From Terrimicrobiaceae bacterium (lineage in GTDB: Bacteria; Verrucomicrobiota; Verrucomicrobiia; Chthoniobacterales; Terrimicrobiaceae), in assembly GCA_044342325.1 (NCBI GenBank), contig JBIIPZ010000005.1:34002-98001 (forward strand): a stretch of DNA of 64,000 bases, written 5' to 3'. A program made the position numbers and the translations under genes. This document shows, piece by piece, positions 486 through 23,741 of this stretch. The notes under the pieces are model-generated. The model was not told where the DNA came from. It saw nothing but the letters and a program-made list of their open reading frames with translations, and made no database searches. Numbering within the stretch: position 1 is the first letter of the stretch; every line of letters starts with the position of its first letter.

Positions 486-594
486 ATTCCCACACCTGCC
501 GACGGGGACGTCGGCGCTCCAGCGCATTGGGAGGGTCATCGTCCTCGCATGACCCAAGATTCAGCCGCCCTCCGGGTCGGAGAGCAGCGGCGTC
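486..594 (+). repeat. Composite REP-like palindromic repeat, copy A
   Basis: GCCGACGGGGACGTCGGCGCTCC + GGAGGGTCATCGTCCTCGCATGACCC + TCAGCCGCCCTCCGGGTCGGAGAGCAGCGGCGTC; aligns with copies at 3677, 19547 and 21173. Confidence 0.85.
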
Positions 595-830
595 ATGGGC
601 TGGACACAGCCTGCTTCGCACCACTCGCGCAAGGTATCCGGGCAGTAATCAATCCCTCCTGGCCACTCAATCGTCAGGCCGTTTGTTGAAACTTGTGCAA
701 AAAAGTTCGCATCACGCAGAGGGTCTGTTGGTTCAAATGATGGAGACAAATCAATCTCTCCACAAAAACCATCCGAAAAATGCAGGCGTAATTGCGAGTC
801 CCCTGTCACGGCAGCCGTTAAAACTCTCAT
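561..830 (-). CDS. DUF2442-family putative antitoxin
   Basis: Motifs LRLHFSDG and TIEWPGGIDYCPDTL; ATG 830 overlaps the upstream TGA (ATGA coupling). Confidence 0.8.
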   Translation of the reverse strand: MRVLTAAVTGDSQLRLHFSDGFCGEIDLSPSFEPTDPLRDANFFAQVSTNGLTIEWPGGIDYCPDTLREWCEAGCVQPMTPLLSDPEGG

Positions 831-1090
831 TTTAATCCTCCAATTTTTCCAAGTGCACGCCCAGCTCTCATATTTTCCCATTGCTCGATAAGCTCATTTT
901 GGTGCAAGGCGGCCCACTCGACTACTTCTCCATGCTGACGAGGAGGGAGTTTTCCCGCCATTACCCCGAAGTCCGAAATGCGAATGCTGGCCTCCCATTC
1001 AGCGCTCATTGCGTGGAAGTGCGGCGGGTTGTGCTCTCCTCGAGTGTTTATAAAAATGGAAATCGAACCCCACTCAGAAATCTTCGGCAT
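827..1090 (-). CDS. DUF4160-family putative toxin
   Basis: MPKISEWGSISIF...EHNPPHFHA...WAALHQNELIEQWE; typical DUF4160 protein paired with DUF2442. Confidence 0.85.
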   Translation of the reverse strand: MPKISEWGSISIFINTRGEHNPPHFHAMSAEWEASIRISDFGVMAGKLPPRQHGEVVEWAALHQNELIEQWENMRAGRALGKIGGLK

Positions 1091-1259
1091 ACTTTTTTAG
1101 ATTATCTCTTAGCGGGAAAAATCAACACCTCATTCCAAAATTCTTTGCATTTCATCGTGGCACGCTGCCGTAGTTTAGTAAGCGTTGCGCCAAGCACCCC
1201 GTTTTTTTTTGAGGGGTTGGTGTAAATGTCGTAGGCCTATGCCACGACACTTACAGCAT

Positions 1260-2801
1260 CTACGCCGCCTTTTTCAGCGAGAGCTTCTTGTCCGCCCACT
1301 TTTCTGGGGTGAGTTCGGCTACCTGCCAGCTTGTGGTCTCGGTGATGCGGGTGAGCACGTCGCGCAGATACTCATGCGGATCGATACCGCGTCTGCGGCA
1401 ACTTTCGATAATCGTGTAGATCACGGCGCTGCGCTTTCCGGCCTCGGCGTCTCCAAAAAACAGCCAGTTCTTCTTGCCGATGGCCGTTGGTCGAATCGCA
1501 TTTTCCACGCCGTTGTTGTCGATTTCGATACGGCCATTAGCGACATACTTGGTGAGAAGTTCCCAGTGCGAGAGGGTGTAGCTGATGGCTTTTCCAAATG
1601 TGCTCGATGGGAGATGCCTTTGGGATGCCTCCATTTTTTCGAGCGCTCGCTTGAGGCGGTTCAATACCATCGCGCTTTGACTGGTTCGCACGGCCACTCT
1701 CAATGCAGGCCCAGCCTTGCTTTTACGCAGGCGTGCTTCGATTCGGTAAAGATTTTGGATTTGATACAGGACCCAGTTGGCGCGCAGTGGCACATGTTCG
1801 CGGGCCTCGTGGAAGTGCCGCCGCGCGTGAGCCCAGCATCCGGCCAGTTCGATACCTTCGCGTTTACTGGCGAAAGCAGGATAAGCCGCATAGGCGTCGC
1901 ATTGCAGCACGCCGCGAAAGTTCACCGGAACGATGTTTTCCAAGCAGGCGGCGCCTCTTCCCGTCTCCCAGTGGAAGACCGCGTCGAGTCCAGGCGCGTG
2001 GGCTGTCCACAAGTAGCCTTGTTTGGTTTTTCCATTCCCGGGCTCAAGATAAGACACGGGCGTTTCGTCGATCTGGACATACTTGTTGTCCATAACTGTG
2101 GTGCGAATGATTTCGTAAATGGGCTGCAACCAAAAGGCGATGAGTTCCATCCATCTCGCAAGCGTCGATCGCGGCAACGACACGCCGTGGCGAGTTTTGA
2201 AAATCATCTCCTGCCGGTAGAGCGGAAGGTGGTCGCAGTATTTGGAGACCGCCACGGTGGCAAGCAGGCCGGGAGCAGCAATGCCGCGCTCCTGCAGGCA
2301 CTCGGGCAGAGGCGCAATTACGGGAGCTGCCTCCTTGTCATCAATGAGCACATATTTGGGACGCACCAGAAGACGGCGAAAAAAACGCCCCGGCTCGAAG
2401 TCCAATCGCTCGCTGATTTCTTCACCAATCCGGCGCCATTTTTCCGGATCGGCAAGCACCTCCGGTGGGTCGATCACAACCTCCTCCGCAGGCAGGTTTT
2501 CAGGAATGCGTTCGCGCCTTGGGGATTTGGTTTTGGGTTTGGCGGGGATCATGGCCTCCGCAAGCAAGGAGGCATCAGGCTCGGGCGCTTGCGTCTCGGA
2601 AAGAACGGCAAACAAATCGAGTTGATTGGAGTTGAGCGCCTCGCTCGAACTCCCGAACATTTTCTTCATCAGCCAATCGATCTTTTCATTCAGAAGCTTC
2701 ACCTCCTGGCGAAGAGACTTATTTTCGGCAATCAGGCGCGCATTGTCCTTTCGGAGCCGTTCGTTCTCCTGCGCCAGGTTGTTTTCGCCGGTTTTCTTCA
2801 C
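1260..2801 (-). CDS. tnpC: IS66 DDE transposase TnpC
   Basis: Motifs KYCDHLPLYRQ, QIDETP, CWAHARRHF, IDNNGVENAIRP; N-terminal coiled coil. Confidence 0.96.
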   Translation of the reverse strand: MKKTGENNLAQENERLRKDNARLIAENKSLRQEVKLLNEKIDWLMKKMFGSSSEALNSNQLDLFAVLSETQAPEPDASLLAEAMIPAKPKTKSPRRERIPENLPAEEVVIDPPEVLADPEKWRRIGEEISERLDFEPGRFFRRLLVRPKYVLIDDKEAAPVIAPLPECLQERGIAAPGLLATVAVSKYCDHLPLYRQEMIFKTRHGVSLPRSTLARWMELIAFWLQPIYEIIRTTVMDNKYVQIDETPVSYLEPGNGKTKQGYLWTAHAPGLDAVFHWETGRGAACLENIVPVNFRGVLQCDAYAAYPAFASKREGIELAGCWAHARRHFHEAREHVPLRANWVLYQIQNLYRIEARLRKSKAGPALRVAVRTSQSAMVLNRLKRALEKMEASQRHLPSSTFGKAISYTLSHWELLTKYVANGRIEIDNNGVENAIRPTAIGKKNWLFFGDAEAGKRSAVIYTIIESCRRRGIDPHEYLRDVLTRITETTSWQVAELTPEKWADKKLSLKKAA

Positions 2802-2848
2802 TCATAAAATACATAGCATGTTCCATGCCAACTGCATAAGCGAAAACT

Positions 2849-3202
2849 TCAGGCTTCACGCTGATACCATGCCCGCATCCGCCCGCCTCGCAAATCAACC
2901 CCGTCGGTGAGCATGGCCAACGCCTCGGGTCGCAGGGCGAGTTTGGTTTTCCCATCCGTATCCTTGGGCCAGGAAAAGGTTCCCTTTTCCAGACGCTTTG
3001 TCAGCAACCAGAGGCCCGTGCCATCCCAGTAAATAATTTTGAGCCGTGTGTGCCTGCGATTGCTGAACACAAAGAGCGCCCCACTCTGCAAATCCTCGTT
3101 GAGCTTGGTTGCGACCATGCCAGAGAGCCCGTCAAATCCTTTGCGCATATCGCAAGGCTCCAAAGCCACGAACACTCGCAACGCTCCGGTGAAACTCAGC
3201 AT
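2849..3202 (-). CDS. tnpB: IS66 accessory protein TnpB
   Basis: Motifs DMRKGFDGL, LFVFSNRR, KRLEKGTFSWP. Confidence 0.95.
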   Translation of the reverse strand: MLSFTGALRVFVALEPCDMRKGFDGLSGMVATKLNEDLQSGALFVFSNRRHTRLKIIYWDGTGLWLLTKRLEKGTFSWPKDTDGKTKLALRPEALAMLTDGVDLRGGRMRAWYQREA

Positions 3203-3609
3203 ACCTCGCCTCCCATCGCGCGCAGCACCACAGCCGCCAATTCCGCATCACGCTCATCCCTGACCCTCAGCCTCGCTCCACCCCCAAGGAGTTCGATTTC
3301 CATCCCGTCGCCAGCACAGCGTGGCTCGGCCCCGCAGGCGATCTCCGCCTCGATCCATTGCACCTGAGGCTTCGCCGCCGCTCCCGTCAAAGCCGAATCT
3401 TTCCCCTGCTTTTGATTGCGCTCCTGAACCCAACTGCAAAAGGTCGAGTAGTTGATGCCAACCATGGCGGCAAACCTTGCCGCACTCATGCCCGCGCCAT
3501 CGAAGGCCGTGAGTATTTCCTGCCGCTTGCCAAGCGGCGTGCGCACACGCCCCAGACTGTCCTGCTTGAGAATTTCCCCTGCTGATAATAACGATGCTGT
3601 AGATGTCAT
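3196..3609 (-). CDS. tnpA: IS66 accessory protein TnpA (HTH)
   Basis: GMSAARFAAMVGINYSTFCSW helix-turn-helix; first gene inside the IS66 IRs. Confidence 0.85.
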   Translation of the reverse strand: MTSTASLLSAGEILKQDSLGRVRTPLGKRQEILTAFDGAGMSAARFAAMVGINYSTFCSWVQERNQKQGKDSALTGAAAKPQVQWIEAEIACGAEPRCAGDGMEIELLGGGARLRVRDERDAELAAVVLRAMGGEVC

Positions 3610-3676
3610 AGCCTCCAGACTACGACACCTCCACTACCTACGGTAGGTGGTGCTCGGCGCAACGCTTACGTAGTTT

Positions 3677-3980
3677 ATCCCCGCACATGCCGACGGGGAC
3701 GGCGGCGCTCCGGCGCATTGGGAGGGTCATCATCTTGCATGACCCATTTTTCAGCCGCCCTCCGGCTCGTAGACCTCCGGGTCGGAGAGCAGCGGCGTCC
3801 GAGGGGAGCATGGTCGTCTCGACCGTGCAGGCGCGAGGCGTGGTTTCGAATGGATTTTGAGCGTGGTGGTGTCTGGGAGTGGTTCCGCGTTTTCCGTGAT
3901 TGATATTGGGGCCATGCCAACCGAAGCACATCGCCGATGGCCCGAAGGGCGCAGCGAGCAGGGCAAAGGATGGCCCTCCA
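3677..3980 (+). repeat. Composite REP-like repeat, copy B, plus a GGGCCATGC...GATGGCCCTCC hairpin unit
   Basis: Same unit order as copy A, extended by GGAGCATGGTCGTCTCGACCGTGC. The unit at 3908-3980 resembles 21137-21163 and 60334-60361. Confidence 0.85.
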
Positions 3981-3981
3981 A

Positions 3982-6900
3982 TTAGAACGAGAAGCCGAGT
4001 GAGGTGCTGATGATGTTGTTTGTGTAGCCCTCGGCTCCGAAGTTCACGTTGTAGAATACCGACGCGCTCCAGCGGTCGCCCACCTTGGCGCTGATGCCTG
4101 CTCCGCCGAAGACGCTGTTGCTGTATGGCGCGCTGGTTTCGTAGTCGAACGATGGGCCGCTGCCGCCTTCGAGGGCGGAGCTGATGTTGCGCGGTTCGTT
4201 GAGGAACTCGTGCATCCAGAACCCGCGCACTTCGGGGATGAGCGTGGTGTTTGTGGCAACTTCCCAGTTGTAGGCCAGGCGTGCGCCGAGGTTCGTGCGG
4301 AGGCTGTTGGCATTCTGCTCGCCGAGCGCGAGGTCGAGGCTGTCGGCGCCGGTTTCCGTGAACCCGCCGATGCCGGCGTAGGTGTATTGCGCGCCGATGA
4401 TCGGGCCAAGCGTGAACTTGCCGACCTCGAAGTCCTTCCCGAGGTTTAGTGCCGCGCTGAATTGGCCGCTGTTCGGATTCGCCCGCGCCGTGCGGTCGAT
4501 TGAGCCGAACTCGATCGAGCGCCGAGTTTGGAAGCCGGTGTAGCCACCACTCACGATGGCGTCGGCGTAGTAACCGTCCTCGTGCGTGTAGCTGCCATAG
4601 AGGCCGAAGAGCGCGCTGTTGCCGCGTGTGCTGCTGCCGCCGTTGTATTTCGCGTAGCTGTATTCGTAGCCCGCGAAGAGGCCTGCCACGAAGTTCTCGC
4701 TCAGGCGGTAGTCGGCACCAACAAGGAACCCGCCGGCGTTGTTGTTGTAGTTCGGAACTCCGGCCAGTCCGCGAGAGATCGAAAACTCGCCGTTGGCCAT
4801 CACCCACGCGTTCCAGTTCGTCTCGATGGCGGATTCCACGATCGGCGAGGCCGTCTTAGCATCCGCCGTGCTCTTGCCGTCCTTGTCGTATTTGATCGGT
4901 TGGCTCAGGCCGATGGATTGGAAGCCTGTCGCCCCCAGACGCAGGGTGCCGAGGCGTTGGGTGAGGAGTTGGGTCTGGTTGTAGGTTTGTTCGATCAAGA
5001 TATCTCCGAGGCTTTCGTAGAAGCCGGGCATGATCTGGTCGAAGGCCGCAGGGAATTGCTCGGTCGTCAGCGAGTCGAGGGCTGTGCCGACGAGGACTGC
5101 ATCGCCTTCCGTGGCCAGAACAAAGCTGTCGAGAGCCTTGGCCACATTGCGTTGGTTTGGGTTGAGCGCGTAGGGAACGAAGCTTTCCGGCCCGAAGAGG
5201 AGCGACCCAACCGTTCCAAGGTTCAAGAAGCGCCCGCGCAGGCCATCGGGAACCACGATTGAATCGAACTCGCCCACAATGCTTCCCGCCTGCAGGAAGT
5301 CGTAGCGTGTGCCGGGCGTGATTTTCGCGCCTTCATAGGATTGCGCCTCCAATGTGCCGCCGAGGGTCGCTTGGCCGCTCACGACGATGCGGTCGAAGTT
5401 CGTCGGGCTGGCGATTTCGATGACGGTCGAACTGCCATCGGAGAGCAGCAGGTTGCCGGCGATGCTCAGCGTGCCGGGCGAATTGCCCGGGGAGAGGTTG
5501 CCCAGCACCACAACATTTTGGGTGATGATCAGGCCCGCGCCGCCGAGTGAGGCGAGCGGATCCACCACAACCTCGTTCGCGGCCAATTGCCCATTCACAG
5601 ACAGAAGTCCGGCATTCACAAGCGCTGTGCCGTTGACACTCATGTTGCTTTGGACATCGAGTTCCCCAGTCCCAAGCTTGTCAAAATTTCCCGGTGTGAC
5701 GACTGTGCCACCGCTAACAACAGATGCACCGGACTGCACGTTGAGCACGCCTGAGGTGACGATGAGTTTTCCCCCCGTTTCGATGGCGAGCGGAGCATTG
5801 TTACCGAATTTCAACGCATTCACGATGTTGGTTTGGCCCTTTGTGATCGTAGCTTGGGTCACATCGTAGTCGGCCACGACGGGCGTGTTCGGCCCGCCGT
5901 TGTTTTCGATGTTCGGGCCGGTGGACTCGGCTCCAGTGACAGTGTAGACCACAGTTTTGTTGGTCGTTGTGAAACTTCCGAAGAGTTTTGTGTATTCGCC
6001 GTGGGCCGCAGTGAATTTCCCGTTGTCCGCAGTTACGGTTCCATTGGTCGAAACCAGTGTGTAAGCGCCGGAATCCAGCGCTTGCACCTCGCTGAAGTCG
6101 AAGGTCGCGTTGCCCAGGGTGGAAACCGTGAAATTTCCGGCGACATTGATTTTCAAGTCCTGCGCGAGCGGTGAACTTCCCGTGTCGAAGAAGGCAATCC
6201 TGCCGCCGGTCCAATCGAGGTTGCCGCCGATCGAGAGCGTCAGGTTGCCCATGATGGACTCCTGCGAGGAGGTGACGAGGAGCTTGCCGCCATCGAGCGT
6301 GACGCTGCCTGTTCCAAGCGCCTGCGGGGCTTCCACCCAGAGTTTACCTTCCGAGATCGTGGTTCCACCAGTGTAGGTGTTGGTAGCACGAAGCCTTGTC
6401 ACTCCCGATCCGACCTGCGCGAAGGAACCGGCTCCGCTGATGACGTTGGAAATAATGGCTTCGTTGGTGCGGTTGACGGCAAAGGTCGCTCCGGAATCCA
6501 CAGAGATGTTGCTGCTGATGGCGCCCGCTGTGCCGCCGAGGGCGAGCGTTCCTGCGGAGATGGTGGTGAGACCGCTGTAGGTGTTGTTGCCGGAGAGCGA
6601 CAGGGTTGAGCTGCCGTTCTTCGTCAGAGCGGAGTTGCCCGAGATGATTCCGCTGATTTCGATGTCGGCAGCGGCGGCATCAACCTTGAGAACATCGCCT
6701 GCAGTCAAATCCATCCCGATGGTTTGAAGATTGCTGGAAGCGTTGATGATGCCGTCCTCGCCGATTTGCAGGGTGTTGCCATTGACGGTGTAGGCACCTG
6801 CTCCTTCGACGAAGTTGAACCCGGAGATCGACGAGAGGGAGGCGGCAGCGAAGTTGTTCGTGCTCGTGCCACCAGGTCCGGCGAATTCGACCTCGTCGCC

Positions 6901-15900: not shown

Positions 15901-18333
15901 CAGCGTGGTCCCTGTCGTGGCGGAGATATTTCCCCCAAGGGACCCCCCATCGCCGATCTGGAGGGTGCCGGCGGCGATGGTGGTGGTGCCGCCGAATCCA
16001 GCGCTGCTACCCGTCAGTGTGAGCGTGCTATTTCCCTGCTTGTTAAACGCTCCATTGCCAGAAAGGACGCCCGCAATCCCATGGGAGTCCGAGCGGTTCA
16101 CCGAGAGGGTTCCGTTTTGCAGAATGGCGATGTTTCCCGAGATCGAGCCCTCCGTGGAGCCGGCCCCGATTTGCAGGGTGCCGCTCTCAATGGTTGTTCC
16201 ACCGGTCAGATCCAAGCCATAATGAACCAACACCGACCCGGCGCCGGTTTTTAAGACGGACCCCGTTCCATCCACAGGTGCCGAGATCGTGCCGGATTGT
16301 AGAACCAAGGAATTCGTGACAGTCAGGTCGACAAAAGAACCGCGGTTGATCGTGCCGTTGTTCAGGGTGACATTTGACAGCGTTTGATTGGTGGAATTCA
16401 GGTTGAAAATACCTCCGCCATTGATGGTTAGATTTCCCGTGGATGGAATGGATACACCGGCTCCGAGCTCGAGGATTCCTTGTTCTATTCTGGTCTCTCC
16501 CGTGTAAGTCGAGTTGCTGCTGAGAACAAGCTTACCCACACCGACCTTCACGAGACCCAAGGAGCCACCGCCCACACCGGTGCTGTCCGTGATCGGAGTC
16601 GACAAATCCACCGAAATATAGCCGTTCGGCCCCGTGACATCGAAGCCCACATTCGATCCTGCCAAAAATCCACCGGCACTATTCGTGCGATTCGTGCTCA
16701 ATCCCGAAAGCACCGAGGTCACTTCATTCGATGTGAAGGATCCGTTTTTGCCCATACCCATCAAGAATGTGGCTCCACTCTCCACTACAATCTTGTTGCT
16801 GCTCCAATCCGCCACAGTTCCGTTGTAGAGCGAAGTGGTGGTCCCGAAGGAAAGTCCTCCTGATTCAATGATTGTGTTGCCTGTGTAGGTGTTGTTACCG
16901 AAGAGAAATGTGATGGCCGTTCCGTTTTGCGTCAGGGAGCCGGTTCCGGATATGTTGCTGGTGAGGTTATTATCCACGGAACGCGCAAATACGAGTGATG
17001 AATTATTCACAATCCCGCCGTATGGAAGATACCCGCCGCTGCCTCCGAACACCAACGTGCCCGAGGAAATCGTCATTGGCACAGCGTTAGAAAAGTTCCC
17101 GGTCAGATTGGTGGTTCCTGATCCGATATGATTGATCGCCACATTATTGAAGACATCCAAACCGATAGTAGCGGTTCCATTGTGATTGATATTCCAAGTT
17201 CCGTTGGAATCTTGCGGAGTCCCAATTTGAAGAACTTGCAAGTTTCCCGCTGAGGTGCCGTTTCCGTAATTAAAAACCGCATCATTAGAGAGGTCGATTC
17301 CACCGGCGGCGAGAGTGCCACCCGTCAGATTGATGACCGCATTCGCTCCATCGGCACCGATACCTTGATTTACATTGGTAATATCTTGGATTGTGGTATT
17401 TCCGCCGGAAATATTCAGCGTGCCATTGTTGCCTATGCTGAATGCTCCGGCTACGGAAAACTCCCCGCCATGGATGTTGATTTCCCCGCTGCCGTTTCCT
17501 CCGCCGATGGTCATACCAGTCCAACCAGCAGTTTGTTGCAGCTTTCCAATGTTCAAATTGATGATGGCCGTTCCATTGCCAGTGCCAATATCCACTTGAT
17601 TGGCAAGGGTCAGGTTACCACCATTCACATTCACAGTTCCTGCCCCTTCTTCCCTAATGTAGAAGCCGCCAACGACATCCATATCACCCGCCCCGATGTT
17701 CAAGGTCCCATTGGAACCAGCAGAGTCGGCAATGCCCATACTCGAATTTTGAGTAATACTGCCGCCTAGCAATGCCACAGTCCCTTGTTCGATAGCGACG
17801 TAGCGAGCGATGGTGTTGTTGCCCGAAAGATTTAAAAAGAGGGTTCCGTTGCCTTCTTTGATAAATCCATCCGTGCCTGTGGCAAATTGGGTAAGGGTTA
17901 ACCCCGCTGCGTTCTCCACAGAAATGATGTTATCGTCCCCATCATTGGGATCCAGCTTCAGCGCCGACTGGATTAAGACAGCTCCAGCGCCGGCATTGAT
18001 TTGAATGGCAGAAGGACTGCCGCCACCATCAGAGGCGCTAAGTGTAAGAATGTAGTTTCCGCCGGGCGCGATGGTGAGGTTTCCGGCTCCCGAGGTGCCG
18101 TTCGCAGTCAGGCGGAAAATCGTGTAATTCGCCCCCAGCGTGCTGGTGTAATCGCTGCTGCTACCATTAAAAATAACGCCATCGCCGCTTCCGGGTTGCT
18201 GACTGGGGGACCAGCTCGCATTGTTAGTCCAAGTGCCGTCGGTTGTGTTCCAAGTCAGGTTCGCTCCGCTGCTAACGGACGAGACGACGAGAAAGAGCGT
18301 TAAGAAAACCGCAGTAAACAAACGATTTTTCAT
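3982..18333 (-). CDS. Giant autotransporter (type Va) adhesin-like protein, ~4,783 aa
   Basis: Signal-peptide-like MKNRLFTAVFLTLFLVVSSVSSGA at 18333 (ORF open from 18516); many K-G-GTL-L-G-NTYTG-T-I--GTL passenger repeats; C-terminal beta-barrel ending SLGFSF. Confidence 0.93.
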   Translation of the reverse strand: MKNRLFTAVFLTLFLVVSSVSSGANLTWNTTDGTWTNNASWSPSQQPGSGDGVIFNGSSSDYTSTLGANYTIFRLTANGTSGAGNLTIAPGGNYILTLSASDGGGSPSAIQINAGAGAVLIQSALKLDPNDGDDNIISVENAAGLTLTQFATGTDGFIKEGNGTLFLNLSGNNTIARYVAIEQGTVALLGGSITQNSSMGIADSAGSNGTLNIGAGDMDVVGGFYIREEGAGTVNVNGGNLTLANQVDIGTGNGTAIINLNIGKLQQTAGWTGMTIGGGNGSGEINIHGGEFSVAGAFSIGNNGTLNISGGNTTIQDITNVNQGIGADGANAVINLTGGTLAAGGIDLSNDAVFNYGNGTSAGNLQVLQIGTPQDSNGTWNINHNGTATIGLDVFNNVAINHIGSGTTNLTGNFSNAVPMTISSGTLVFGGSGGYLPYGGIVNNSSLVFARSVDNNLTSNISGTGSLTQNGTAITFLFGNNTYTGNTIIESGGLSFGTTTSLYNGTVADWSSNKIVVESGATFLMGMGKNGSFTSNEVTSVLSGLSTNRTNSAGGFLAGSNVGFDVTGPNGYISVDLSTPITDSTGVGGGSLGLVKVGVGKLVLSSNSTYTGETRIEQGILELGAGVSIPSTGNLTINGGGIFNLNSTNQTLSNVTLNNGTINRGSFVDLTVTNSLVLQSGTISAPVDGTGSVLKTGAGSVLVHYGLDLTGGTTIESGTLQIGAGSTEGSISGNIAILQNGTLSVNRSDSHGIAGVLSGNGAFNKQGNSTLTLTGSSAGFGGTTTIAAGTLQIGDGGSLGGNISATTGTTLAYNSIGEAFLDGLSGNGTLVQAGNGTLIVASDLPGFTGSTQIQSGTLQLGNGGSTGLISANITNNGTLALNRSDDFTFSTNSSGTGVLLKLGSNTVTLNRTQSNTGGTVVDSGTFVLSSDNLLATSGNLAVNNAGTLSLGSNNQTLSTLTLNGGNITGTGTLTANTGFNIQSGSISALLAGTGGVVKSSVGNFSITGNNTYSGKTIVEDGTVSFDNASATGTNTQALGTNASVDLGVALSTSGTLNYTGAAGTFAKNIKALGSGNNTVMNTGSGLLTLTGTLTKNGTILVLAGGAGGIQVNGVIAGSAENSDLILNGGNITLNATNTYNGPTFLNNGAFLSLAVANALPGDLIIDATSSVAFGANQTIEALSGVAGSTIDIGSYTLTMGSNATDSLYEGGIEGSGKVVKTGTNAITLSGTNTYNGTTTINGGVLVFGTPASLYNGDNSTWTGDNIIVNSGGAFALSVGANGSFSEEQALSIFQTLTSNATAGGILDGGSVGLDVTGEMSLTEVTADREGGGAVGFVKLGDGSLTLTGNNTYTGATDIRGGTLSLASSDLLVATGNLTVQGGTLALGSNNQTFNRVTLAEGSITGNGGTLTASGYAVQSGTATANLAGNATLAKTGAGTAILSGNNTYTGSTTISAGALTFLTSTSLYGGDSARWTSGNITAATGSTMALGVGGTDAFSSSNIDTLVTNLTQSQTTSGGIAAGARIGLDTSGGDASLSTIFKDRTGTGSGTLSLVKLGSGTLSLTGNNSYTGGTFIETGTLSGNSLGLKGNITNNGTLLLGTYGTYQTEVSGNGNLLVGNSANMILAGNATMTGGTTIQSGTLTIGGVIDPTNPYSPSSYRAGSLSGNVANEGSLVFDLSLYAGTRTYNGIISGNGRLSTTFTYPHYPSGANGTLVLTGNNTFTGGTSVSIGTVDISGGTLASTGSVTVSNIGTFAIGSSNQIIGNFTIGYGSVTGSGSLTAQSYDLQHGSIAPGLAGTAGLEKNAYGYSSQSISYDNGRVYLTGNNTSSGNITINSGILSFDNVQSLYSGNNASWTKEKISVSANATLSLGTGIGTATSGFNNAQITEIFSNLTQNGTGGLAANAKIGLNTISDFTLTTTITDRPDGGVLGLDKIGDGNLILDANNTFTGELSIFEGTVTLGRNNALRTSSDLVVDSKSSASYGFNVGNYSQQFVDITLKEGLLAGGSGAFIATGNYTMVKGNATANLSGNASLIKTNTSGSSYYVSEPEIVFLSGNNSYTGRTTVDGLAWSGTQSPSPSSNSGAPTKDNAKLQFQTVGSLYGGNATLWTPENISVDSYGIFSLRTGSAGFDGTQVSTLIQNLITANRSTGGFLDKSVLGIDTNGEDLVINDDIGDTTGLTSGGGAVGLVKYGSGTLTLNGNSTRSFSTSVTGGNLVLGANATLSSASANLLVDNALLNMDATNQTVRKVTVTSGSILGSGTLTSSADGFVFGSANITANLAGAVGATIDQGTTILSGNNTYTGNTTMGYSATLSLANVNALSGSTLVVLSNYSGPLQLSVGGTNTYNFGGLSGTGNITTGSNSLTIGANSQNSTYSGNLSGTGSITKTGNGTLTLTGNNTYTGGTTISSGTLSISSNGSISHASVDTNIGNGTLNLASGSISNARGNIGVNADNTGVANVSGGNWTNSNYFTVGDSGDGTLNLSGGLISNTGNYSYIGASSGSSGVANVSGGNWTNANEFRVGSSGNGTLNITGGTVTNVVGFVATFNGTTGVVNVSGGTWSNSDRLRLGRYGNGTLNLTGGNVSIAGGAGNLTVAVNTSSTGILNIGNGSTVGNLQAARVTAGNGTAIVNFNHSGTHAFSPIMEGNLAVNKLGAGTTTLSGNNTYTGGTFITSGTLEGNTQSLQGAITNNASVVFNQTTNGTYSGVLSGSGEFAKTGAGTLTVSGNSSSFNGTAAINSGTVSLTGSMAGATTAINSGGTLTGNGSLGAVTINSGGTIAPGNSAGIITTGNMTWNSGGTYAWELGNANSTAGTGWDLMSSTGSLTIGANSTNKFTIAASTTNGSGFDPNVKNASWKIAEFAGGISGFSADAFNITTTGFENLPAIYGFGVSSNGTALNFSYATVATWIGGTGNWTNTANWETGFAAINGVTVDYAGTNGTSTNDSTVGNINALVFTNNATGSFTLTGGNLTIGEGGITNNSNSTQTIALNLRLGADQTFAANTANLVVSGNISGGISHQTYEGFTLTKEGNQTLTLSGANTYSGSTTVNAGTLLVEGAVRDVTNNATFTVQSSGVAGSVDNLAGATGTNNGTVASLANAGTFTNGGNITADATTSGTLTSTGRIGGTFGVDGGLATIGAGGQVAGTSTITSGTLDVSGTVAGVTNNATLTIQQSGVAGSVTNLAGATGTNNGTAASLANAGTFTNSGNITGNATTSGTLSSTGRIGGTLGVDGGLATIGAGGQVAGTSTITSGTLDVSGTVAGVTNNASLTIQQSGIAESVTNLAGATGTNNGTAASLANAGTFTNSGNITGNATTSEMLSSTGRISGTLGVESGSATIGAGGQVEGSSTITSGTLDVSGTVAGVTNNATLTIQQGGIAGSVSNLAPATGTNNGTAASLANAGTFTNSGNITGNATTSGTLSSTGTIGGTLGVDGGLATIGAGGQVAGTSTITSGTLDVSGTVAGVSNNATLTIQQGGIAGSVTNLVGATVTNNGTAASLANAGTFTNRGNITGDLLSFDGAVTVAQSGQVSGNTTIGDGEFVVAGSVAAVTSNALLRVEQSGVAGNVVNLGNGTATNNGTVALLLNSGSFTNSGNITGEVISFGTLFNSGNIGGALTVGGGETTISGTVAGPTAISAGVLQGTGTLGSVSLNSGGTIAPGTGNGTATLTVGNSLWNGGGIYNWQTSSLNGTAGSDWDLITSGGMLTLNATSANPISFTLSTLGIATLADVKKASWEVGSFEGGISGFEKKAFAFDPAGMAGNDGRYFMSLGANNTALVLNYKSAATWITGSGNWTIATQWEDEAFPENGDEVEFAGPGGTSTNNFAAASLSSISGFNFVEGAGAYTVNGNTLQIGEDGIINASSNLQTIGMDLTAGDVLKVDAAAADIEISGIISGNSALTKNGSSTLSLSGNNTYSGLTTISAGTLALGGTAGAISSNISVDSGATFAVNRTNEAIISNVISGAGSFAQVGSGVTRLRATNTYTGGTTISEGKLWVEAPQALGTGSVTLDGGKLLVTSSQESIMGNLTLSIGGNLDWTGGRIAFFDTGSSPLAQDLKINVAGNFTVSTLGNATFDFSEVQALDSGAYTLVSTNGTVTADNGKFTAAHGEYTKLFGSFTTTNKTVVYTVTGAESTGPNIENNGGPNTPVVADYDVTQATITKGQTNIVNALKFGNNAPLAIETGGKLIVTSGVLNVQSGASVVSGGTVVTPGNFDKLGTGELDVQSNMSVNGTALVNAGLLSVNGQLAANEVVVDPLASLGGAGLIITQNVVVLGNLSPGNSPGTLSIAGNLLLSDGSSTVIEIASPTNFDRIVVSGQATLGGTLEAQSYEGAKITPGTRYDFLQAGSIVGEFDSIVVPDGLRGRFLNLGTVGSLLFGPESFVPYALNPNQRNVAKALDSFVLATEGDAVLVGTALDSLTTEQFPAAFDQIMPGFYESLGDILIEQTYNQTQLLTQRLGTLRLGATGFQSIGLSQPIKYDKDGKSTADAKTASPIVESAIETNWNAWVMANGEFSISRGLAGVPNYNNNAGGFLVGADYRLSENFVAGLFAGYEYSYAKYNGGSSTRGNSALFGLYGSYTHEDGYYADAIVSGGYTGFQTRRSIEFGSIDRTARANPNSGQFSAALNLGKDFEVGKFTLGPIIGAQYTYAGIGGFTETGADSLDLALGEQNANSLRTNLGARLAYNWEVATNTTLIPEVRGFWMHEFLNEPRNISSALEGGSGPSFDYETSAPYSNSVFGGAGISAKVGDRWSASVFYNVNFGAEGYTNNIISTSLGFSF
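7690..9170 (-). repeat. Intragenic 303-bp (101-aa) tandem repeat, about 4 near-identical units plus degenerate flanks
   Basis: Unit GSVTNLAGATGTNNGTAASLANAGTFTNSGNITGNATTSGTLSSTG... recurs; antisense ORF stops at 7996, 8299, 8602 and 8905 are spaced exactly 303 bp apart. Confidence 0.92.
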
Positions 18334-18694
18334 GGAGTGGTTGTGAGGTGTTTTGCACTGGCTGGCGTAAAAATTTTTCATGGCAATGAAGTCAAGGCGG
18401 GTATTCGCCCCGGAGTTTATCGAGTTGGATTTTTGGAAAATGTTTTTCATGTCGGGCAGAATTCTGTTCGAGCCAAAATGCCACAGAATCGCTCTGGCCC
18501 TCGCTCGGCGAGGCATCAGACAAAGCGGAAATGTTGGCGTGAAGTCTCGTCGGGGTTAGTATTTCCACTCAAGACAAACCTAAAGCTATGGTATTAAATC
18601 AGAAATTATAGGGAGTGGACAAGAAGATAATGGCGTAGTTTTTGAAGCACGCGGAGCAGGCACTCGGGAGAATCTGGCTGATCGCTGGAGAGGT

Positions 18695-18872
18695 CTCTCA
18701 CAGAGGCACCAAGACACGGAGGGGGGCGTGTGGCGGAATTTTGAAAAAATTTCGAGGGTGGTGGCGGGGTGGCATCCACTGTGGTCGAAAGCCGCTCCGG
18801 CTTCCGCTACGAGTATGCGTCGCGGTTTGGAAAATCTGAAAATACTCCGTGTTCCCCGTGGCTCTGTGAGAG
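18695..18872. repeat. MITE-like element with ~9-bp-periodic inverted ends
   Basis: CTCTCACAGAGGCACCAAGACACGGAG ... TCTGAAAATACTCCGTGTTCCCCGTGGCTCTGTGAGAG; sibling at 19703-19798. Confidence 0.7.
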
Positions 18873-18893
18873 CAAAAATGCGCTGGGCGAGAT

Positions 18894-18917
18894 GGCGTCG
18901 GCGGAGCGTTGCCCTCC
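18894..18917 (-). repeat. GGAG-headed REP-like hairpin
   Basis: Minus strand GGAGGGCAACGCTCCGCCGACGCC, just downstream of the RelE/ParE stop. Confidence 0.55.
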
Positions 18918-18935
18918 AAAATGGCGCTTGGGAAC

Positions 18936-19259
18936 CTATTCGGCTGGGAAAGTTTCGTCTTCTTTCAGTCGGGCTTGCCAACGGCGGGGGTGGCGCTTGC
19001 CGTGAATGACGGCGACGATCGAGATAAAATCCGGGAAGACACGATAGATGATCAAATAAGGAAATCGCCGGGGCAAGGCCATTCGGGCCTGACGGTGCAC
19101 GATTGGAAATAGTGTGGGCTGGCGGGAAATCAAAGCAAGACAGGCATCCACACTTCGCACAAACTCGGCTCCCAACCCGAGAGAACGCCGTTCATACCAA
19201 AGAGCTGCCTCGGCCATATCGGCTTCGGCTTCCTCCCGGAAAATGACTGGCAAACTCAC
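18936..19259 (-). CDS. RelE/ParE-family toxin
   Basis: FREEAEADMAEAALWYE...LGAEF...RFPYLIIYR...IVAVIHGKRHP; GTG start overlaps the antitoxin stop. Confidence 0.9.
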   Translation of the reverse strand: MSLPVIFREEAEADMAEAALWYERRSLGLGAEFVRSVDACLALISRQPTLFPIVHRQARMALPRRFPYLIIYRVFPDFISIVAVIHGKRHPRRWQARLKEDETFPAE

Positions 19260-19474
19260 AGGGAGGCCAGGATTTTTTCGCGAACAGTGCTCCACGGTGT
19301 TCCGTGGCTGGGATTTTTTTCCAACGCATCCAATCGGCGGTCCAGTTCGGCGATGTGCTGCGGGGAAAGGCCAATCGGTGATGTTTCAGCAGCAATGGAA
19401 TCCCACAGATCCTCGACGAGTTGGATTTTCTCGGAAACGGGGAGTTGTTTCAGATCTTCAATGGTCGCTGACAT
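19256..19474 (-). CDS. Addiction-module antitoxin component (TIGR02574-like)
   Basis: LPVSEKIQLVEDLWDSI...ELDRRLD...PWSTVREKI. Confidence 0.88.
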   Translation of the reverse strand: MSATIEDLKQLPVSEKIQLVEDLWDSIAAETSPIGLSPQHIAELDRRLDALEKNPSHGTPWSTVREKILASL

Positions 19475-19546
19475 ATTGCTACAGTTAAAATGAATGCTTC
19501 CCAAGAGCAAACATTTATGCGCGTGCAAGGAATTTCGAAGACATTT

Positions 19547-19693
19547 CGGGGACCCTGGCGCTCCAGCGCATTGGAGATGGTCATCATCTTGCATGACCCA
19601 TTTTTCAGCCGCTCTCCGGCTCGTAGAGCCTACGGGTCGGAGAGCAGCGGTGCCAGAGGGGGGCATGGTCGTCTCGACCGCGCAGACGCGAGG
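19547..19693 (+). repeat. Composite REP-like repeat, copy C
   Basis: GGCGCTCCAGCGCATTGG...GTCATCATCTTGCATGACCCATTTTTCAGCCGCTCTCCGGCTCGTAGAGCCTACGGGTCGGAGAGCAGCGG...GGGCATGGTCGTCTCGACCG. Confidence 0.85.
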
Positions 19694-19702
19694 GCGGAGG
19701 GA

Positions 19703-19798
19703 TCACGCGGAGGCACCAACGCGCGGAGGGGGAGTCTGAGCGGAAATGTTGACCGGAAATTCTGAAAATACTCCGCGTTCCCCGTGGCTCTGTGAGAG
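19703..19798. repeat. MITE-like element, shorter sibling of 18695-18872
   Basis: TCACGCGGAGGCACCAACGCGCGGAG ... TCTGAAAATACTCCGCGTTCCCGTGGCTCTGTGAGAG. Confidence 0.65.
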
Positions 19799-19851
19799 GG
19801 AAAATGCGGAGGGTAGTGGGCTCACGCGTAGGCAAAGATGGAAAAAATCTC

Positions 19852-19879
19852 TTGATCGTATATTTTTTAAATATACATT
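19852..19879 (+). promoter_or_regulatory. Putative brnTA promoter with overlapping palindromic operator
   Basis: TTGATC-N16-TACATT enclosing the inverted repeat GTATATTT-ttt-AAATATAC (19858-19876), a few bases before the start codon. Confidence 0.55.
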
Positions 19880-19885
19880 GATAGG

Positions 19886-20185
19886 GTGATTGATTGGTCA
19901 CAGATCGTCGGTTTTGAATGGGATTCCGGAAATGCCTTAAAGAGTGTCGATAAGCACGGGGTCTCCTGCGATGAGGCGGAATCTCTTTTTGCCGAAGATG
20001 AAATCCTCGTTCTCAAGGACGAGCTACACTCTCAAACCGAGGAGCGGTGGCATGCTTTCGGTCGATCCAATCAAGAGCGACTTCTGAGCATCACATTTAC
20101 AGTTCGCGAAAATTTGTTGCGTGTGATTTCGGCAAGGCCGATGAACAAGAAAGAAAGGAAACACTATGCGTTCGATCAAAAATAA
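19886..20185 (+). CDS. brnT: BrnT-family toxin
   Basis: FEWDSGNALKSVDKHGVS...HSQTEERW...LRVISARPMNKKER. Confidence 0.92.
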   Translation: MIDWSQIVGFEWDSGNALKSVDKHGVSCDEAESLFAEDEILVLKDELHSQTEERWHAFGRSNQERLLSITFTVRENLLRVISARPMNKKERKHYAFDQK

Positions 20186-20396
20186 GCAGGTCGTTCGGGA
20201 AGATGGCACGAGCACCGACCATTTGGATTTGTCCAAGGCGGTGCGTGTCTCGATGCCGAATTTGAAATTTTCCACTGAAACCATTTCCCTGCGGATGCCG
20301 GTGGCATTGCTAAACACCATCCGGCAGGAGGCCAATCGTCAGGACATCCCCTACCAAAGCCTGATCAAAATGAGCTTGGCTGATAAGTTTAGCTGA
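20166..20396 (+). CDS. brnA: BrnA/CopG-type antitoxin
   Basis: PNLKFSTETISLRMP...IPYQSLIK ribbon-helix-helix; overlaps brnT. Confidence 0.85.
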   Translation: MRSIKNKQVVREDGTSTDHLDLSKAVRVSMPNLKFSTETISLRMPVALLNTIRQEANRQDIPYQSLIKMSLADKFS

Positions 20397-20532
20397 AGAC
20401 TGCGGTCCTTCTCGGCCCTGAGTGGACGGTCAGTTCCTCTCAATCCTGCTGATCCTGTCATCCTGTCTAAATGCGGTTTTGGGTTAATTTCCGCTGGAAA
20501 ATCATGCCGTGGTGTATTAGAGAAGAGAATCA

Positions 20533-20733
20533 ATGAGTTCTCAAACCTTGCTCTCGGAAATCGAAAGCGCCCCGGAGGAAATCCGGCGCGAGGTTTGGGA
20601 TTTTTTGAAGTTCTTGAAAAGCCGACAGGCTGCGGGACCAGAAAGGGAGGATTCCCTGCTGCCTCTGGCTCAAACGGCGTGGGGCCCTGATTGGAACTCG
20701 GCCGAGGAGGACGAGGCATGGAAGGACTTGTAG
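20533..20733 (+). CDS. DUF2281-family putative antitoxin
   Basis: IESAPEEIRREVWDFLKFLK...DWNSAEEDEAWKDL. Confidence 0.8.
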   Translation: MSSQTLLSEIESAPEEIRREVWDFLKFLKSRQAAGPEREDSLLPLAQTAWGPDWNSAEEDEAWKDL

Positions 20734-21059
20734 CGGGCGATGCGGTGACCGTGCCGTTCCCTTTTACGGATTTCAGTAGCCAAAAGGTTCGCCCCGCTCT
20801 GATCCTGGCTGTGTTGGATCGCGGGGATGTGCAGCTTTGCCAAATCACTAGCCAACCTCTGACGCATAAAAACGCGATACCTGTCTACGGATCAGATTTT
20901 TTCGCCTGAGGATTGCCGAAGCAAAGTTTCCTTTTGCCCCATAGGCTGGTCACTGCCAGTAGCAGCATCGTTCGCCGGGTGGCAGGCCAGCTCACGGAAA
21001 TCTGCCAAGCTGTTTGCGCCGTGGTGCGTGGAGAGCTCGGCAACGCCCAGAAAGGGTAG
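20718..21059 (+). pseudogene. PemK/MazF-family toxin interrupted by an in-frame TGA (20907-20909)
   Basis: GDAVTVPFPFTDFSSQKVRPAL...CQITS; after the stop the same frame continues GLPKQSFLLPHRLVTASSSIVRRVAGQL to TAG 21059. Confidence 0.8.
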
Positions 21060-21130
21060 AAGTCTCCAGCGGGTGGATTGGTTCTAGCTGGCGAGGGTGT
21101 CTGAAAGTGGTTCCGAGCAGGTTGTGGCTG

Positions 21131-21367
21131 ATATTTGGGCCATGCCGGAGGATGGGCCCTCCCATGGTTTCGCGCTCCAACGCGTTGGGTGATCGTTTCG
21201 CATGACCCATTTCTCAGCCGCCCTCCGGCTCGTAGAGCCTACGGGTCGGAGAGCAGCGGCGTCCGAGTGGGGCATGGTCGTCCCGACCGTGCGGACGCGG
21301 AGCTTGGTTTGTCAGCGGTGAAGCTGCCAAGCAAGTGTCTTTTACGGTCGGGACGGCCGTGCCCCCT
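21131..21367 (+). repeat. Composite REP-like repeat, copy D, with flanking hairpin units
   Basis: GGGCCATGCCGGAGGATGGGCCCTCCC unit, core 21173-21300 as in copies B and C, and an inverted ACGGTCGGGACGGCCGTGCCCCC unit near 21344-21366. Confidence 0.85.
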
Positions 21368-21435
21368 TGGGGAAGCAGCAGGAAATTACCCGGTGAGGTC
21401 TTGAAAAGTGAATTTATGAGGCACGCATTCGACGC

Positions 21436-21769
21436 ATGCAGTTGGAATTCGACCCGGCCAAGGAAGCTGCCAATTTGGCCAAGCACGGCGTGGATTTTTC
21501 CACGGTCCTGCGGGTTTTTGAAGAACCCGATCCCAGCATGATTAACCACAGAGGACACAGAGATCACTGAGAATGAGTTTTTTGCAATTTCACTTAATTC
21601 CAGTGGCTTGTTCAATTCCCAAAACCCTTCAGACATTCCTGTCCCTCCTGATCCTCCTGTCATCCTGTCCAAAATCTTTTTGCGGGTTGCGAATCCCAAG
21701 CGCGTGATCGGTGCTGGATACTGGAGGAAGCAGAAGAGCGCCTATGAAAACCAAAAGCAAAAAACTTAA
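21436..21769 (+). pseudogene. Disrupted BrnT-family toxin (N- and C-terminal remnants)
   Basis: 21436-21540 reads MQLEFDPAKEAANLAKHGVDFSTVLRVFEEP; 21701-21769 reads RVIGAGYWRKQKSAYENQ*; the middle is occupied by 9-bp-periodic repeat DNA. Confidence 0.72.
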
Positions 21770-22061
21770 CTACACAGCAGAACCCGCTGGTGAGGGGTGG
21801 AAATTCGCGGCGGGGTCTGCCCTGGATCGCGATCAGCAAATGGCCTTGGGAATCCCGGAGCCCTCTGTAGCCGCGAAGATGAAAGTCGTGCGGAAGCCGG
21901 CCCGACCAGCACGCATCAACATCCGCACCACGCATGAGACCATTGCCGGTTTACGGGCGCGGGCAGAGGAAGCCGGGCTACCCTACCAGACGCTGGCCGC
22001 CAGCGTGTTGCACATGGTCGCCAAGGGGGAGTTGAAGTTGTCTCTGGCGCGCGTGGGGTGA
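21744..22061 (+). CDS. CopG/BrnA-like antitoxin
   Basis: RINIRTTHETIAGLRARAEEAGLPYQTLAASVLH; start overlaps the toxin remnant end. Confidence 0.8.
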   Translation: MKTKSKKLNYTAEPAGEGWKFAAGSALDRDQQMALGIPEPSVAAKMKVVRKPARPARINIRTTHETIAGLRARAEEAGLPYQTLAASVLHMVAKGELKLSLARVG

Positions 22062-22085
22062 TGGCCGAAGGGACAGGAAAAGAGA

Positions 22086-22271
22086 GGGGCATGGTCGTCT
22101 CGACCGTGCGGATGCGTGGCCTGAGGAGGATGCCGGCATTATAAGCGAAAACGTTTGTTCGTCTCTCTGTGTAAGAGCTTTTCGTTATGCGGTGCATGCC
22201 GCGTCTGACGCTTGGAGTCTTGGTGACTCGCGGAGGTTCAAATTTGGGTCAGGCGAGGACGCTGACCCGCC
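22086..22271. repeat. Partial composite repeat (copy E) and REP-like hairpin
   Basis: GGGGCATGGTCGTCTCGACCGTGCGGATGCG (22086-22116); GGGTCAGGCGAGGACGCTGACCCGCC (22246-22271). Confidence 0.65.
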
Positions 22272-23737: not shown

Positions 23738-23741
23738 GACA

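Follow-up and report, generated by a model that had tools for sequence, protein, structure and literature searches.

Short palindromic repeats lying between genes are best known from enterobacteria, where repetitive extragenic palindromic (REP) sequences combine into bacterial interspersed mosaic elements (BIMEs) and are associated with a Y1 transposase, TnpA-REP, also termed REP-associated tyrosine transposase or RAYT (PMC3333891), and from Pseudomonas, for which REP deserts have been described (PMC3390384). In Escherichia coli, the variable intergenic site between folA and apaH holds the ccdO157 toxin-antitoxin (TA) module, and the REP sequences present there in about half of the strains were suggested to contribute to its plasticity (PMC3184786). 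Here we analyze a window of 64,000 nucleotides from a Terrimicrobiaceae bacterium (Verrucomicrobiota; assembly GCA_044342325.1, contig JBIIPZ010000005.1), in which predicted TA modules lie between the core genes pgm and nnr, separated by copies of a composite palindromic repeat. The units of this composite, called U1 to U4, are new families of the REP/BIME/MITE kind (MITE, miniature inverted-repeat transposable element), and their distribution, the link between U1 and a RAYT gene and the break points falling at them in relatives are directly observable in the genomes. The composite is probably (at roughly 0.6) a nested mosaic of the BIME type, built from at least four lineage-specific palindromic families, and blocks have probably been exchanged at its copies within a permissive island.

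The families resemble REP/BIME and REPIN-RAYT systems (REPIN, REP doublet forming hairpins) in being short GC-rich extragenic palindromes present in tens to hundreds of copies, in forming inverted doublets and fixed-order mosaics of units, and in the presence of a single-copy RAYT gene amid its own REPs. They differ in that four unrelated families are nested, that a RAYT is found for U1 only, that the copy number is lower (24-128), and that the units, enriched near TA loci, lie where variable DNA begins or ends. Like MITEs, U2 doublets have terminal inverted repeats and variable cores, and are numerous, intergenic, arranged in tandem arrays and nested; unlike for MITEs, no target-site duplication was established for U2 doublets, no clean filled/empty pair was obtained and no parent with a DDE transposase was found, the sole regular neighbor of U2 and U3 being a PF04754 gene (putative transposase). 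In IS200/IS605-type transposons, cargo lies between two co-oriented subterminal hairpins recognized by the Y1 transposase, and the element inserts beside a fixed short target; the direct U1 units around DUF2281-MazF genes in a relative (G007) and on another contig of this genome (C69) would be compatible with such an arrangement.

Chromosomal integrons and clusters of attC sites lacking a nearby integrase (CALINs), in the part of their description drawn on here (Cury et al. 2016, PMC4889954), likewise hold small modules, often TA pairs, between co-oriented palindromic repeats of 100-170 nt, and module content and order vary among related genomes; the present repeats differ from them in lacking attC architecture and an adjacent integrase, in occurring beyond the arrays and in separating genes that run both ways. 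The folA-apaH site is similar in that a TA module lies with REP sequences in a highly variable site between core genes, but it is a single module at one site, whereas here multi-module arrays with four-family composites recur in the window, on three other contigs (C69, C78 and C19) and in several species. Finally, the multi-copy Rpn (YhgA-like, PF04754) proteins of E. coli promote RecA-independent recombination and gene acquisition, with sites of action given as unknown and no associated repeat or target site named in the portion of that paper used here (PMC5350276); PF04754 genes are multi-copy here too, and differ in that every copy in this genome and in G007 adjoins U2/U3 units, as read from sequence alone. 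Among the matches listed in a search of the open-access literature, judged by titles and the starts of abstracts, no description of TA arrays punctuated by REP-type mosaics was found.

Composite copies and the four repeat families

The window corresponds to positions 34002-98001 of contig C70 in a 2.93-Mb assembly of 78 contigs (86% complete), called G000 among the genomes compared; contigs carry the prefix C, loci the prefix L, and relatives are labeled G001, G004, G007, G037 and so on, G007 being the closest. A repeat search of the window gave three families (D9, D12 and D18) linking the stretches 486-590, 3724-3845, 19579-19700, 21188-21309 and 22081-22126, all on the plus strand, and alignment of the five copies revealed a common order of parts, always U1-U2-U3-U4, with units absent in some copies. 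The composite was split into these units, for which nhmmer profiles were built and iterated over the whole genome, and a de novo catalogue of all short interspersed repeats of the genome was compiled (359 intervals, 241 loci). The units of the interval are as follows:

405-439, minus strand: partial unit resembling U3, the leftmost of the repeat cluster (blastn match to U3 in G004)
497-593, plus strand: composite copy 1, with U1 (497-520), U2 (528-565) and a partial U3 (569-593) (nhmmer, alignment; conserved in G004 and G037)
3678-3964, plus strand: composite copy 2, a full doublet (nhmmer, multi-copy alignment; 90.7% identity to G037 1785-2108)
3688-3711, 3719-3755, 3759-3798 and 3802-3830, plus strand: U1, U2, U3 and U4 of copy 2 (nhmmer)
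~3893-3964: long right arm of copy 2, an inverted U2 with an expanded loop; the de novo repeat intervals of this copy are 3694-3847 and 3852-3964
18723-18811 and 18830-18933, plus strand: two further small repeat units (matches in several genomes of the genus)
19547-19700, plus strand: composite copy 3, without U1, with U2 (19576-19609), U3 (19614-19651) and U4 (19657-19685) (nhmmer, alignment)
21127-21368, plus strand: composite copy 4, without U1, with U2 (21187-21218), U3 (21222-21262) and U4 (21266-21294), flanked by inverted U2 (21127-21163, minus) and U4 (21344-21368, minus) (nhmmer, alignment; de novo interval 21121-21366)
22083-22111, plus strand: composite copy 5, U4 alone (nhmmer)
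22240-22272, minus strand: U2 beside nnr (nhmmer), the right-hand units together spanning 22083-22272

An earlier note on this DNA had claimed a repeat recurring at five places on the same strand with a fixed unit order and missing from the region 22.3-50 kb, and both claims are borne out, the first by repeat search, alignment and profiles alike, the second by the position of the next U match (60325-60360). That note had not recorded the minus-strand units at 21127-21163, 21344-21368 and 22240-22272, the piece at 405-439 and the extension of the copy 2 arm to ~3964. Copies 3 and 4 share 85% identity across 133 nt, a likeness that is not due to chance, while the adjacent BrnT/BrnA genes give no blastn match to each other; the sequence just 5' of copy 4 repeats the end of the copy 2 right arm. 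In G043:C30, the two small units of 18723-18811 and 18830-18933 are found on either side of the same ParE module.

Genome-wide, the profiles gave 205 matches at 105 loci (U1 24, U2 128, U3 23 and U4 30), on most contigs and on both strands. U1, a REP of 24 nt, occurs in REPIN-type doublets, which are found at the RAYT gene of contig C52, at C52:22428-22499 and in G001, G004, G007 and G008. U2 is a 37-nt hairpin, which at about 20 loci forms inverted U2(+)...U2(-) doublets of 127-270 bp with variable cores; U3 is a palindrome of 32-40 nt inserted in the loops of other hairpins, and U4 is a 29-nt hairpin. Taken by the features that define the known classes, U1, U2 and U4 are numerous GC-rich extragenic palindromes, as REPs are, with compensatory changes seen in U1 and U2, U1 and U2 form the inverted doublets of REPINs, the units combine in a recurrent order as in BIME mosaics, and U2 doublets end in the inverted repeats of MITEs. 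Unit junctions to the left of U1 doublets (G001, G004, G007 and G008) and the 3' tail of U2 have in common a T-rich motif with the ending TTTCAG or TTTCAC, which may either belong to the units or represent a preferred target.

The hairpins are maintained by compensatory changes: position 4 of the U2 stem pairs in 106 of the 128 copies (T-A 48, C-G 34, G-C 13, A-T 11), and U1 shows two pair types (G-C 19, A-T 4). Folded as DNA, three copies of the composite each gave three or four separate hairpins. The U4 stem, as read from the sequence, has a T opposite a G on the plus strand only, which would form a wobble pair in RNA. Alignment of 16 composite loci shows one fixed layout: first a short GC hairpin and U2, next a tail rich in A/T, then a hairpin of the form GCCGC...GCGGC and U4, and in many cases a distal U2 in inverted orientation. 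The loop of the GCCGC hairpin holds U3 as an insert, and at C3 and C19 it is instead the loop of U4 that does, which gives U3 two host hairpins. Outside the island, the U2-U3(-U4) order is found again at no fewer than 12 loci, among them loci on C2, C3, C13, C19, C40, C42, C50 and C78. Moreover, U2 and U4 alternate in tandem arrays at C53:18898-19952, C17:142-826, C45:31-495, C62:13325-14533 and C35:8108-8490 (periods of ~271, 216, 216, 157 and 209 bp, respectively), several of which lie at contig ends, while the array on C53 lies between an oxidoreductase gene and a DUF485/solute-symporter operon. Units are also present beside core genes, namely a fabF-like ketoacyl synthase (KAS)/Na-H exchanger, hisF, leuD, an acetate-permease operon and pheS. 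The metagenome runs holding the region come from lake water, and U2 was also detected at 27 loci in other metagenome-assembled genomes from lakes labeled Terrimicrobiaceae/Spartobacteria. At the Rfam gathering threshold, the sole match in the 64-kb window was a bacterial RNase P RNA class A (RF00010, 150.9 bits, 49727-50153), with none at the composites.

Break points in related genomes

The pgm-nnr interval is minimal in G037, where it measures 1.46 kb and reads pgm, U3, U1-U2-U3, DUF2442/DUF4160, U1-U2-U3-U4 with the inverted U2 arm, 49 bp, U4, U2(-) and nnr. Relative to it the window carries two additions: an IS66-family insertion sequence (IS) with an 8-bp target duplication, at which the alignment joins 1177 to 3662, and a block of 18.1 kb (3965-22077) that includes an autotransporter gene and whose edges are exactly the inverted U2 arm and U4. 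The genes of the interval are the following:

1-327, minus strand: 5' part of pgm (phosphoglucomutase; 653-aa open reading frame (ORF) continuing beyond the window), left core flank (Pfam PGM_PMM_I/II/III)
561-1090, minus strand: DUF2442 (561-881) and DUF4160 (827-1090) gene pair (Pfam E-values 6e-9 and 7e-19)
1178-3669, minus strand: IS66-family IS with Orf1, Orf2 and a DDE transposase, genes within 1260-3609 (Pfam; terminal inverted repeats)
3982-18516, minus strand: autotransporter of 4844 aa with PATR repeats and a C-terminal beta-barrel (Pfam Autotransporter E-value 3e-55, PATR)
18936-19480, minus strand: predicted ParE toxin (18936-19295) and Unstab_antitox antitoxin (19256-~19480) (Pfam)
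19886-20396, plus strand: predicted BrnT (19886-20185) and CopG-type antitoxin (20166-20396) (Pfam E-values 4e-23 and 1e-19)
20533-21059, plus strand: predicted DUF2281 antitoxin (20533-20733) and MazF-like frame (20718-21059) (Pfam DUF2281, translation)
21417-22061, plus strand: broken BrnT and putative BrnA-like antitoxin ORF (21711-22061) (Pfam BrnT fragment 21436-21570, translations)
22295-23953, minus strand: nnr (YjeF_N and carbohydrate kinase), right core flank (Pfam)

On the right side, homology resumes at 22078 with G037 and at 22226 with G004, which shares the stretch from pgm through DUF4160, including copy 1, as well as the U2(-) by nnr, and which otherwise has a DUF234 ATPase. With G007, G001 and G015, homology breaks off next to repeat units on either side, at 373-395, just left of the U3-like piece, and at 22297; in these genomes pgm adjoins an ATP-grasp gene, and nnr is followed by a weak U1-like match and a ParD-YoeB pair. 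In G007 (C135:33650-40552; L016:2650-9553), ParD-YoeB is followed by large DUF499 and DUF1156 genes downstream of nnr, and this stretch looks like a defense-island-type neighborhood replacing the TA modules of the window. The flanks themselves are conserved, pgm having 92-98% amino acid identity in G007, G004 and G015 and nnr being present in all 31 genomes searched. The comparison among relatives proposed in the earlier note finds the interval to differ in content, with break points at repeats (G037, G004, G007, G001 and G015).

The TA modules of 18520-22300 are found as discrete blocks in many of 41 genomes of the genus: the ParE module in G043, G032, G035, G001, G039 and G004, the BrnT/CopG block (19843-20398) in nine genomes, DUF2281/MazF blocks with 88-89% identity in G007 and G008, and the broken-BrnT/BrnA-like module in no fewer than 13 genomes. 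In G001, G004 and G039 the ParE module comes no more than 70 bp after the latter, an order that differs from that of the window. U1 doublets lie at the edges of these shuffled blocks. For example, G007 and G001 have a common left flank and U1 doublet (95.8% identity) and diverge within ~8 nt after it, G007 continuing with DUF2281-MazF and G001 with BrnT'/BrnA'/ParE, and G004 carries MazF, a U1 doublet and then BrnT'/BrnA'/ParE; judged from these sequences, the pattern would fit deletion or replacement between direct doublets. At a site without TA genes, a U2 doublet on C2 occupies the place of a lipid gene cluster of 4.3 kb in G007 and 6.8 kb in G014, and in G000 that cluster is on C39, beside another U2.

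In four lake metagenomes, contigs cover the modules and end at repeats. In joints that skip whole cassettes (19607>21126, 19649>21135 and 19683>21131) the shorter side measures only 21-24 nt; in the joint 21164>22079 it measures 31 nt, with 24 foreign letters between and a depth of 3.9. These joints are no evidence of excision, because all of them can derive from other repeat copies. A gene coding for a group II intron reverse transcriptase/maturase adjoins a U2-U3 composite (G000 C3:72542-73762; L012:43-1263), and the sequence C3:74348-74377 just outside the composite, which we take to be the 5' end of the intron, also abuts a U1 doublet in G007:C144 and G001:C454, suggesting insertion of group II introns beside these hairpins.

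The content of the intervals proposed in the earlier note agrees with Pfam at the level of gene families and needed two corrections, since the MazF-like frame has an in-frame stop (20907-20909), its Pfam match coming solely via the paralogue on C69 (PemK_toxin), and the second BrnT is interrupted by a small repeat. By sequence, adjacent small genes of known toxin and antitoxin families point to type II TA modules: ParE with Unstab_antitox, BrnT with a CopG antitoxin, DUF2281 with the broken MazF-like frame, and DUF2442 with DUF4160. The broken BrnT consists of its N-terminal 42 codons, a small repeat of ~140 nt (21548-21690) and a C-terminal remnant; its partner is putatively BrnA-like by resemblance, Pfam giving no match. 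The interrupting repeat reads through as a T-E-D-T-E-type peptide, and a look-alike of it is present inside the N-terminal extension of the integron integrase ORF described below (L055 ~1925-1960). Another small unit (20434-20471) has a second copy at 21636-21673 and is also present in G001. The 8-bp target duplication of the IS66 element is at 1170-1177 and 3670-3677, and there is one full copy of the element in the genome. The autotransporter gene contains four tandem repeats of 303 nt (7787-8995, 83-85% identity to the reference copy) and many repeats of 37-94 nt, all of them PATR-type passenger repeats. The G+C content of the TA stretch is ~53%, against 58-64% in the core flank.

Toxin-antitoxin neighbors and candidate enzymes

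The TA catalogue was obtained by six-frame searches of the genome with eight TA families, which gave 28 loci, and the control set consists of 2237 genes from a custom Markov gene caller, whose calls served only for this set and for the definition of gaps and which missed nearly all TA genes (scores -7 to +3). A U1-U4 locus lies within 600 bp of 9 of the 28 TA loci and of 175 of the 2237 control genes (Fisher p 2e-4); with the three loci of the island excluded, the numbers are 6/25 and 175/2237 (p 0.012). For the loci of the de novo catalogue the corresponding counts are 14/28 against 369/2237, and 11/25 against 369/2237 outside the island (p 0.0012). The repeats are therefore about 3-fold enriched beside TA loci. 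Conversely, 19 of the 28 TA loci lack any U1-U4 unit at this distance (600 bp), at least 88 of the 105 unit loci have no TA neighbor, and only 17 of the 241 de novo loci are within 600 bp of a catalogued TA locus. The mapping called for in the earlier note thus supports its expected enrichment but places most repeats away from TA genes, and the idea of a dedicated cassette site cannot be upheld, the units being at 105 loci, many of them beside core genes, and absent from most TA loci. 

Arrays similar to that of the window are present on three other contigs. On C78 a MazEF pair and a DUF6290 gene lie between repeat clusters, on C19 units exclusively of the minus strand surround a PIN-Phd pair, and on C69 a DUF2281-MazF paralogue lies between direct repeats of 270 bp that contain U1, with a UPF0175/DUF3368 pair after it. 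A role of the composite as a promoter element of BrnT was considered and dropped, a third BrnT (on C5) having no unit on its contig.

Three Y1_Tnp genes were found in the genome, two of them above the NCBIfam RAYT cut-off of 80 (86.4 and 95.7). The one on C52 (86.4 bits) carries U1 doublets on both sides, so that a REP-RAYT pair exists for U1 only; the two others carry different repeats, and neither RAYT has U2, U3 or U4 on its flanks. The suggestion that RAYT-type enzymes serve the repeats in trans consequently holds as a family assignment for U1 and finds no counterpart for U2 to U4. The Y1 gene of the window is as follows:

50480-51538, minus strand: Y1 (IS200-like/RAYT-like) gene, 352 aa (65.4 against the RAYT cut-off of 80)

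An inverted repeat of 35 nt, of which the genome has about eight copies, flanks this gene (50470-51611), and the gene was dropped as a candidate enzyme for U2 on account of this different repeat.

PF04754 genes have U2/U3 units within ~300 bp in 5 of 5 cases in G000 (C3:75128-75658, C46:35592-36122, C50:94071-94601, C40:109369-109881 and C50:22-429) and in 8 of 8 in G007 (L089, L093, L095 and L097-L101), U2 lying 130-290 bp upstream in constant relative orientation. The units are not simply the two ends of the gene. The copies are 80-93% identical through their flanking units, and the 13 associations are not independent events, because the homology of the paralogues runs through those units. 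In G033, G043 and G035, none of five PF04754 loci had units nearby.

The earlier note saw no integrase gene, and profile searches agree for the window, whereas the genome has a true integron integrase on contig C30 (TIGR02249, 415.9-417.8 bits against a cut-off of 265; C30:1-2977, locus L055), with an N-terminal extension. Divergently upstream of this IntI are three ORFs of low G+C content and two candidate attC hairpins of ~130 nt sharing a 27-nt start; the contig ends after ~1.5 kb of cassettes, and a similar attI/attC-like stretch is present at C46:44882-45448. The candidate attC sites have no similarity to U1-U4, and C30 has no U match. The core pair RYYYAAC...GTTRRRY was found in none of the five composite copies, a weak test because the pattern also missed the two candidate sites on C30. 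In addition, the composites are separate hairpins and not a single bulged one, the units are not confined to a cluster, many being single or in inverted doublets, and the modules are not co-oriented, DUF2442/DUF4160 and the ParE pair being on the minus strand, and BrnTA, DUF2281/MazF, BrnT'/BrnA' and the composites on the plus strand. The "integron-like array" of the earlier note is thus a good description of the layout, which fails each structural test of an attC array or CALIN.

Weighing the explanations

The reading that we favor is that the palindromic elements would have spread through the intergenic DNA of the whole genome and piled up in permissive variable regions, together with TA modules, IS66, broken genes and other small repeats. 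The dispersed stretches, 85-95% identical, would then allow gene blocks to be inserted, deleted and reshuffled at them, presumably by homologous recombination between copies or by slippage, without a dedicated site-specific enzyme, and the outcome would be small modules in an array, with co-oriented repeats between them. Reading individual events as gains or as losses would likewise be tentative, and the enrichment near TA loci would reflect tolerance of insertions in accessory DNA. Ordinary homologous recombination between copies accounts for the patterns observed, and no result shows site-specific recombination.

Several observations weigh against this explanation or loosen the figures behind it. 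The units are co-oriented within arrays (5/5 in the window, all minus on C19, 4/4 in G043, 2/2 in G007 and 3/3 in G008), which simple random insertion does not predict, and which growth by unequal crossing-over or strand-specific single-strand transposition would. Blocks made of a U1 doublet and a TA module recur in differing contexts with one edge exactly at the doublet, as a site-specific model would also have it, and a cognate enzyme is identified for U1 only, no RAYT of this genome being flanked by the other units. The controls are native, high-scoring genes, so that the enrichment may concern accessory DNA in general, and the TA catalogue is a sample and not a census, the ParE of the window and the MazF of C69 having been missed by the family search. 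Most compared loci were chosen for their repeats, and the comparison thus shows that break points can fall at repeats and says nothing on how often they do. At a locus close to the island, upstream of the window and not picked in this way, a 4.3-kb indel absent from G007 (C70:26683-31022, with a LytTR regulator, one U2, a small ORF and a solute symporter) has ~10 bp of microhomology and no repeat at its ends. The role of recombination or insertion landmarks given to the repeats in the earlier note is supported in part: edges of variable DNA coincide with units, and not every difference breaks at a repeat.

Among the alternatives, an integrase-free exchange of cassettes driven in trans by enzymes, a RAYT acting on U1 and Rpn/YhgA-like PD-(D/E)XK proteins on U2 and U3, survives best, and we still regard it as unlikely. 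It is kept alive by the consistent co-orientation and by the block edges at U1 doublets: co-oriented direct units bracket TA modules in the window, on C69, and at G007:C144, G008:C20, G001:C454 and G043:C30, block edges fall within ~8 nt of the U1 hairpin, the RAYT gene of C52 is flanked by U1, and all PF04754 genes of G000 and G007 have units nearby, in a family that raises RecA-independent recombination in E. coli. Against it, the loci compared revealed neither an excision product nor an empty site whose junction had the precision expected of an enzyme, most unit loci have no TA neighbor, the 13 Rpn-like associations go back to paralogues homologous through the units, G033, G043 and G035 show no such association, and E. 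coli RpnA showed little or no sequence specificity in vitro (PMC5350276). In its fuller form, in which the small palindromic units would be the working sites of hairpin-directed nucleases (RAYT on U1, Rpn-like proteins on U2 and U3) running an integrase-free exchange of TA and defense modules, the proposal appears improbable.

It is also rather improbable that the repeats are cis-acting expression elements, such as terminators, mRNA-stabilizing hairpins or insulators, which selection would keep between small operons under independent regulation, with their position at block edges a by-product. Such roles have been reported for REP elements in enterobacteria, and the stable hairpins with compensatory changes, as well as the T/G position of U4 that could wobble as RNA, would agree with them. 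The copies, however, have no consistent position relative to genes, copies 1 and 4 lying 3' of one operon and 5' of the gene that follows it on that strand, copy 2 lying 3' of the autotransporter gene, copy 3 between divergent starts and copy 5 between convergent ends; doublets, tandem arrays and nesting characterize mobile repeats, and no Rfam family matched the units of the window.

That the window copies are merely remnants of a local tandem duplication of a [repeat + BrnTA] block, with no wider role, seems very unlikely: copies 3 and 4, with their 133 nt of similarity, each precede a BrnT/BrnA-type pair, and the stretch 5' of copy 4 repeats the end of the copy 2 arm, but the two pairs do not match each other at the nucleotide level, the broken-BrnT/BrnA-like module travels separately in many genomes, and the genome-wide occurrence of the units and their presence in other species already contradict the idea. 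TA cassettes are common in chromosomal integrons. An integron-type array (CALIN) served by the bona fide IntI of C30 is nevertheless hardly credible, since, although half of CALINs are in genomes with an IntI elsewhere according to the part of the survey used (PMC4889954), each composite folds into several hairpins, lacks the R''/R' core pair in all five copies by the weak test above and is unlike the C30 candidate sites, the 105 unit loci are in both orientations and include inverted doublets, and the cassette genes run in both directions.

The favored explanation, that of a BIME-like mosaic at which blocks are exchanged, rests on new REP/MITE families and a REP-RAYT pair now documented in an uncultured freshwater verrucomicrobial lineage. 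The break points show that such repeats mark sites of exchange of TA modules and of larger blocks between close relatives, and the repeats account for the assembly breaks of this genus in these islands. If the nuclease-based proposal were true, the Rpn family would have its first candidate natural target sites in the U2 and U3 hairpins, a testable DNA target for the enigmatic Rpn/YhgA-like "transposase_31" proteins, and the arrays would represent a cassette system without need of a tyrosine recombinase.

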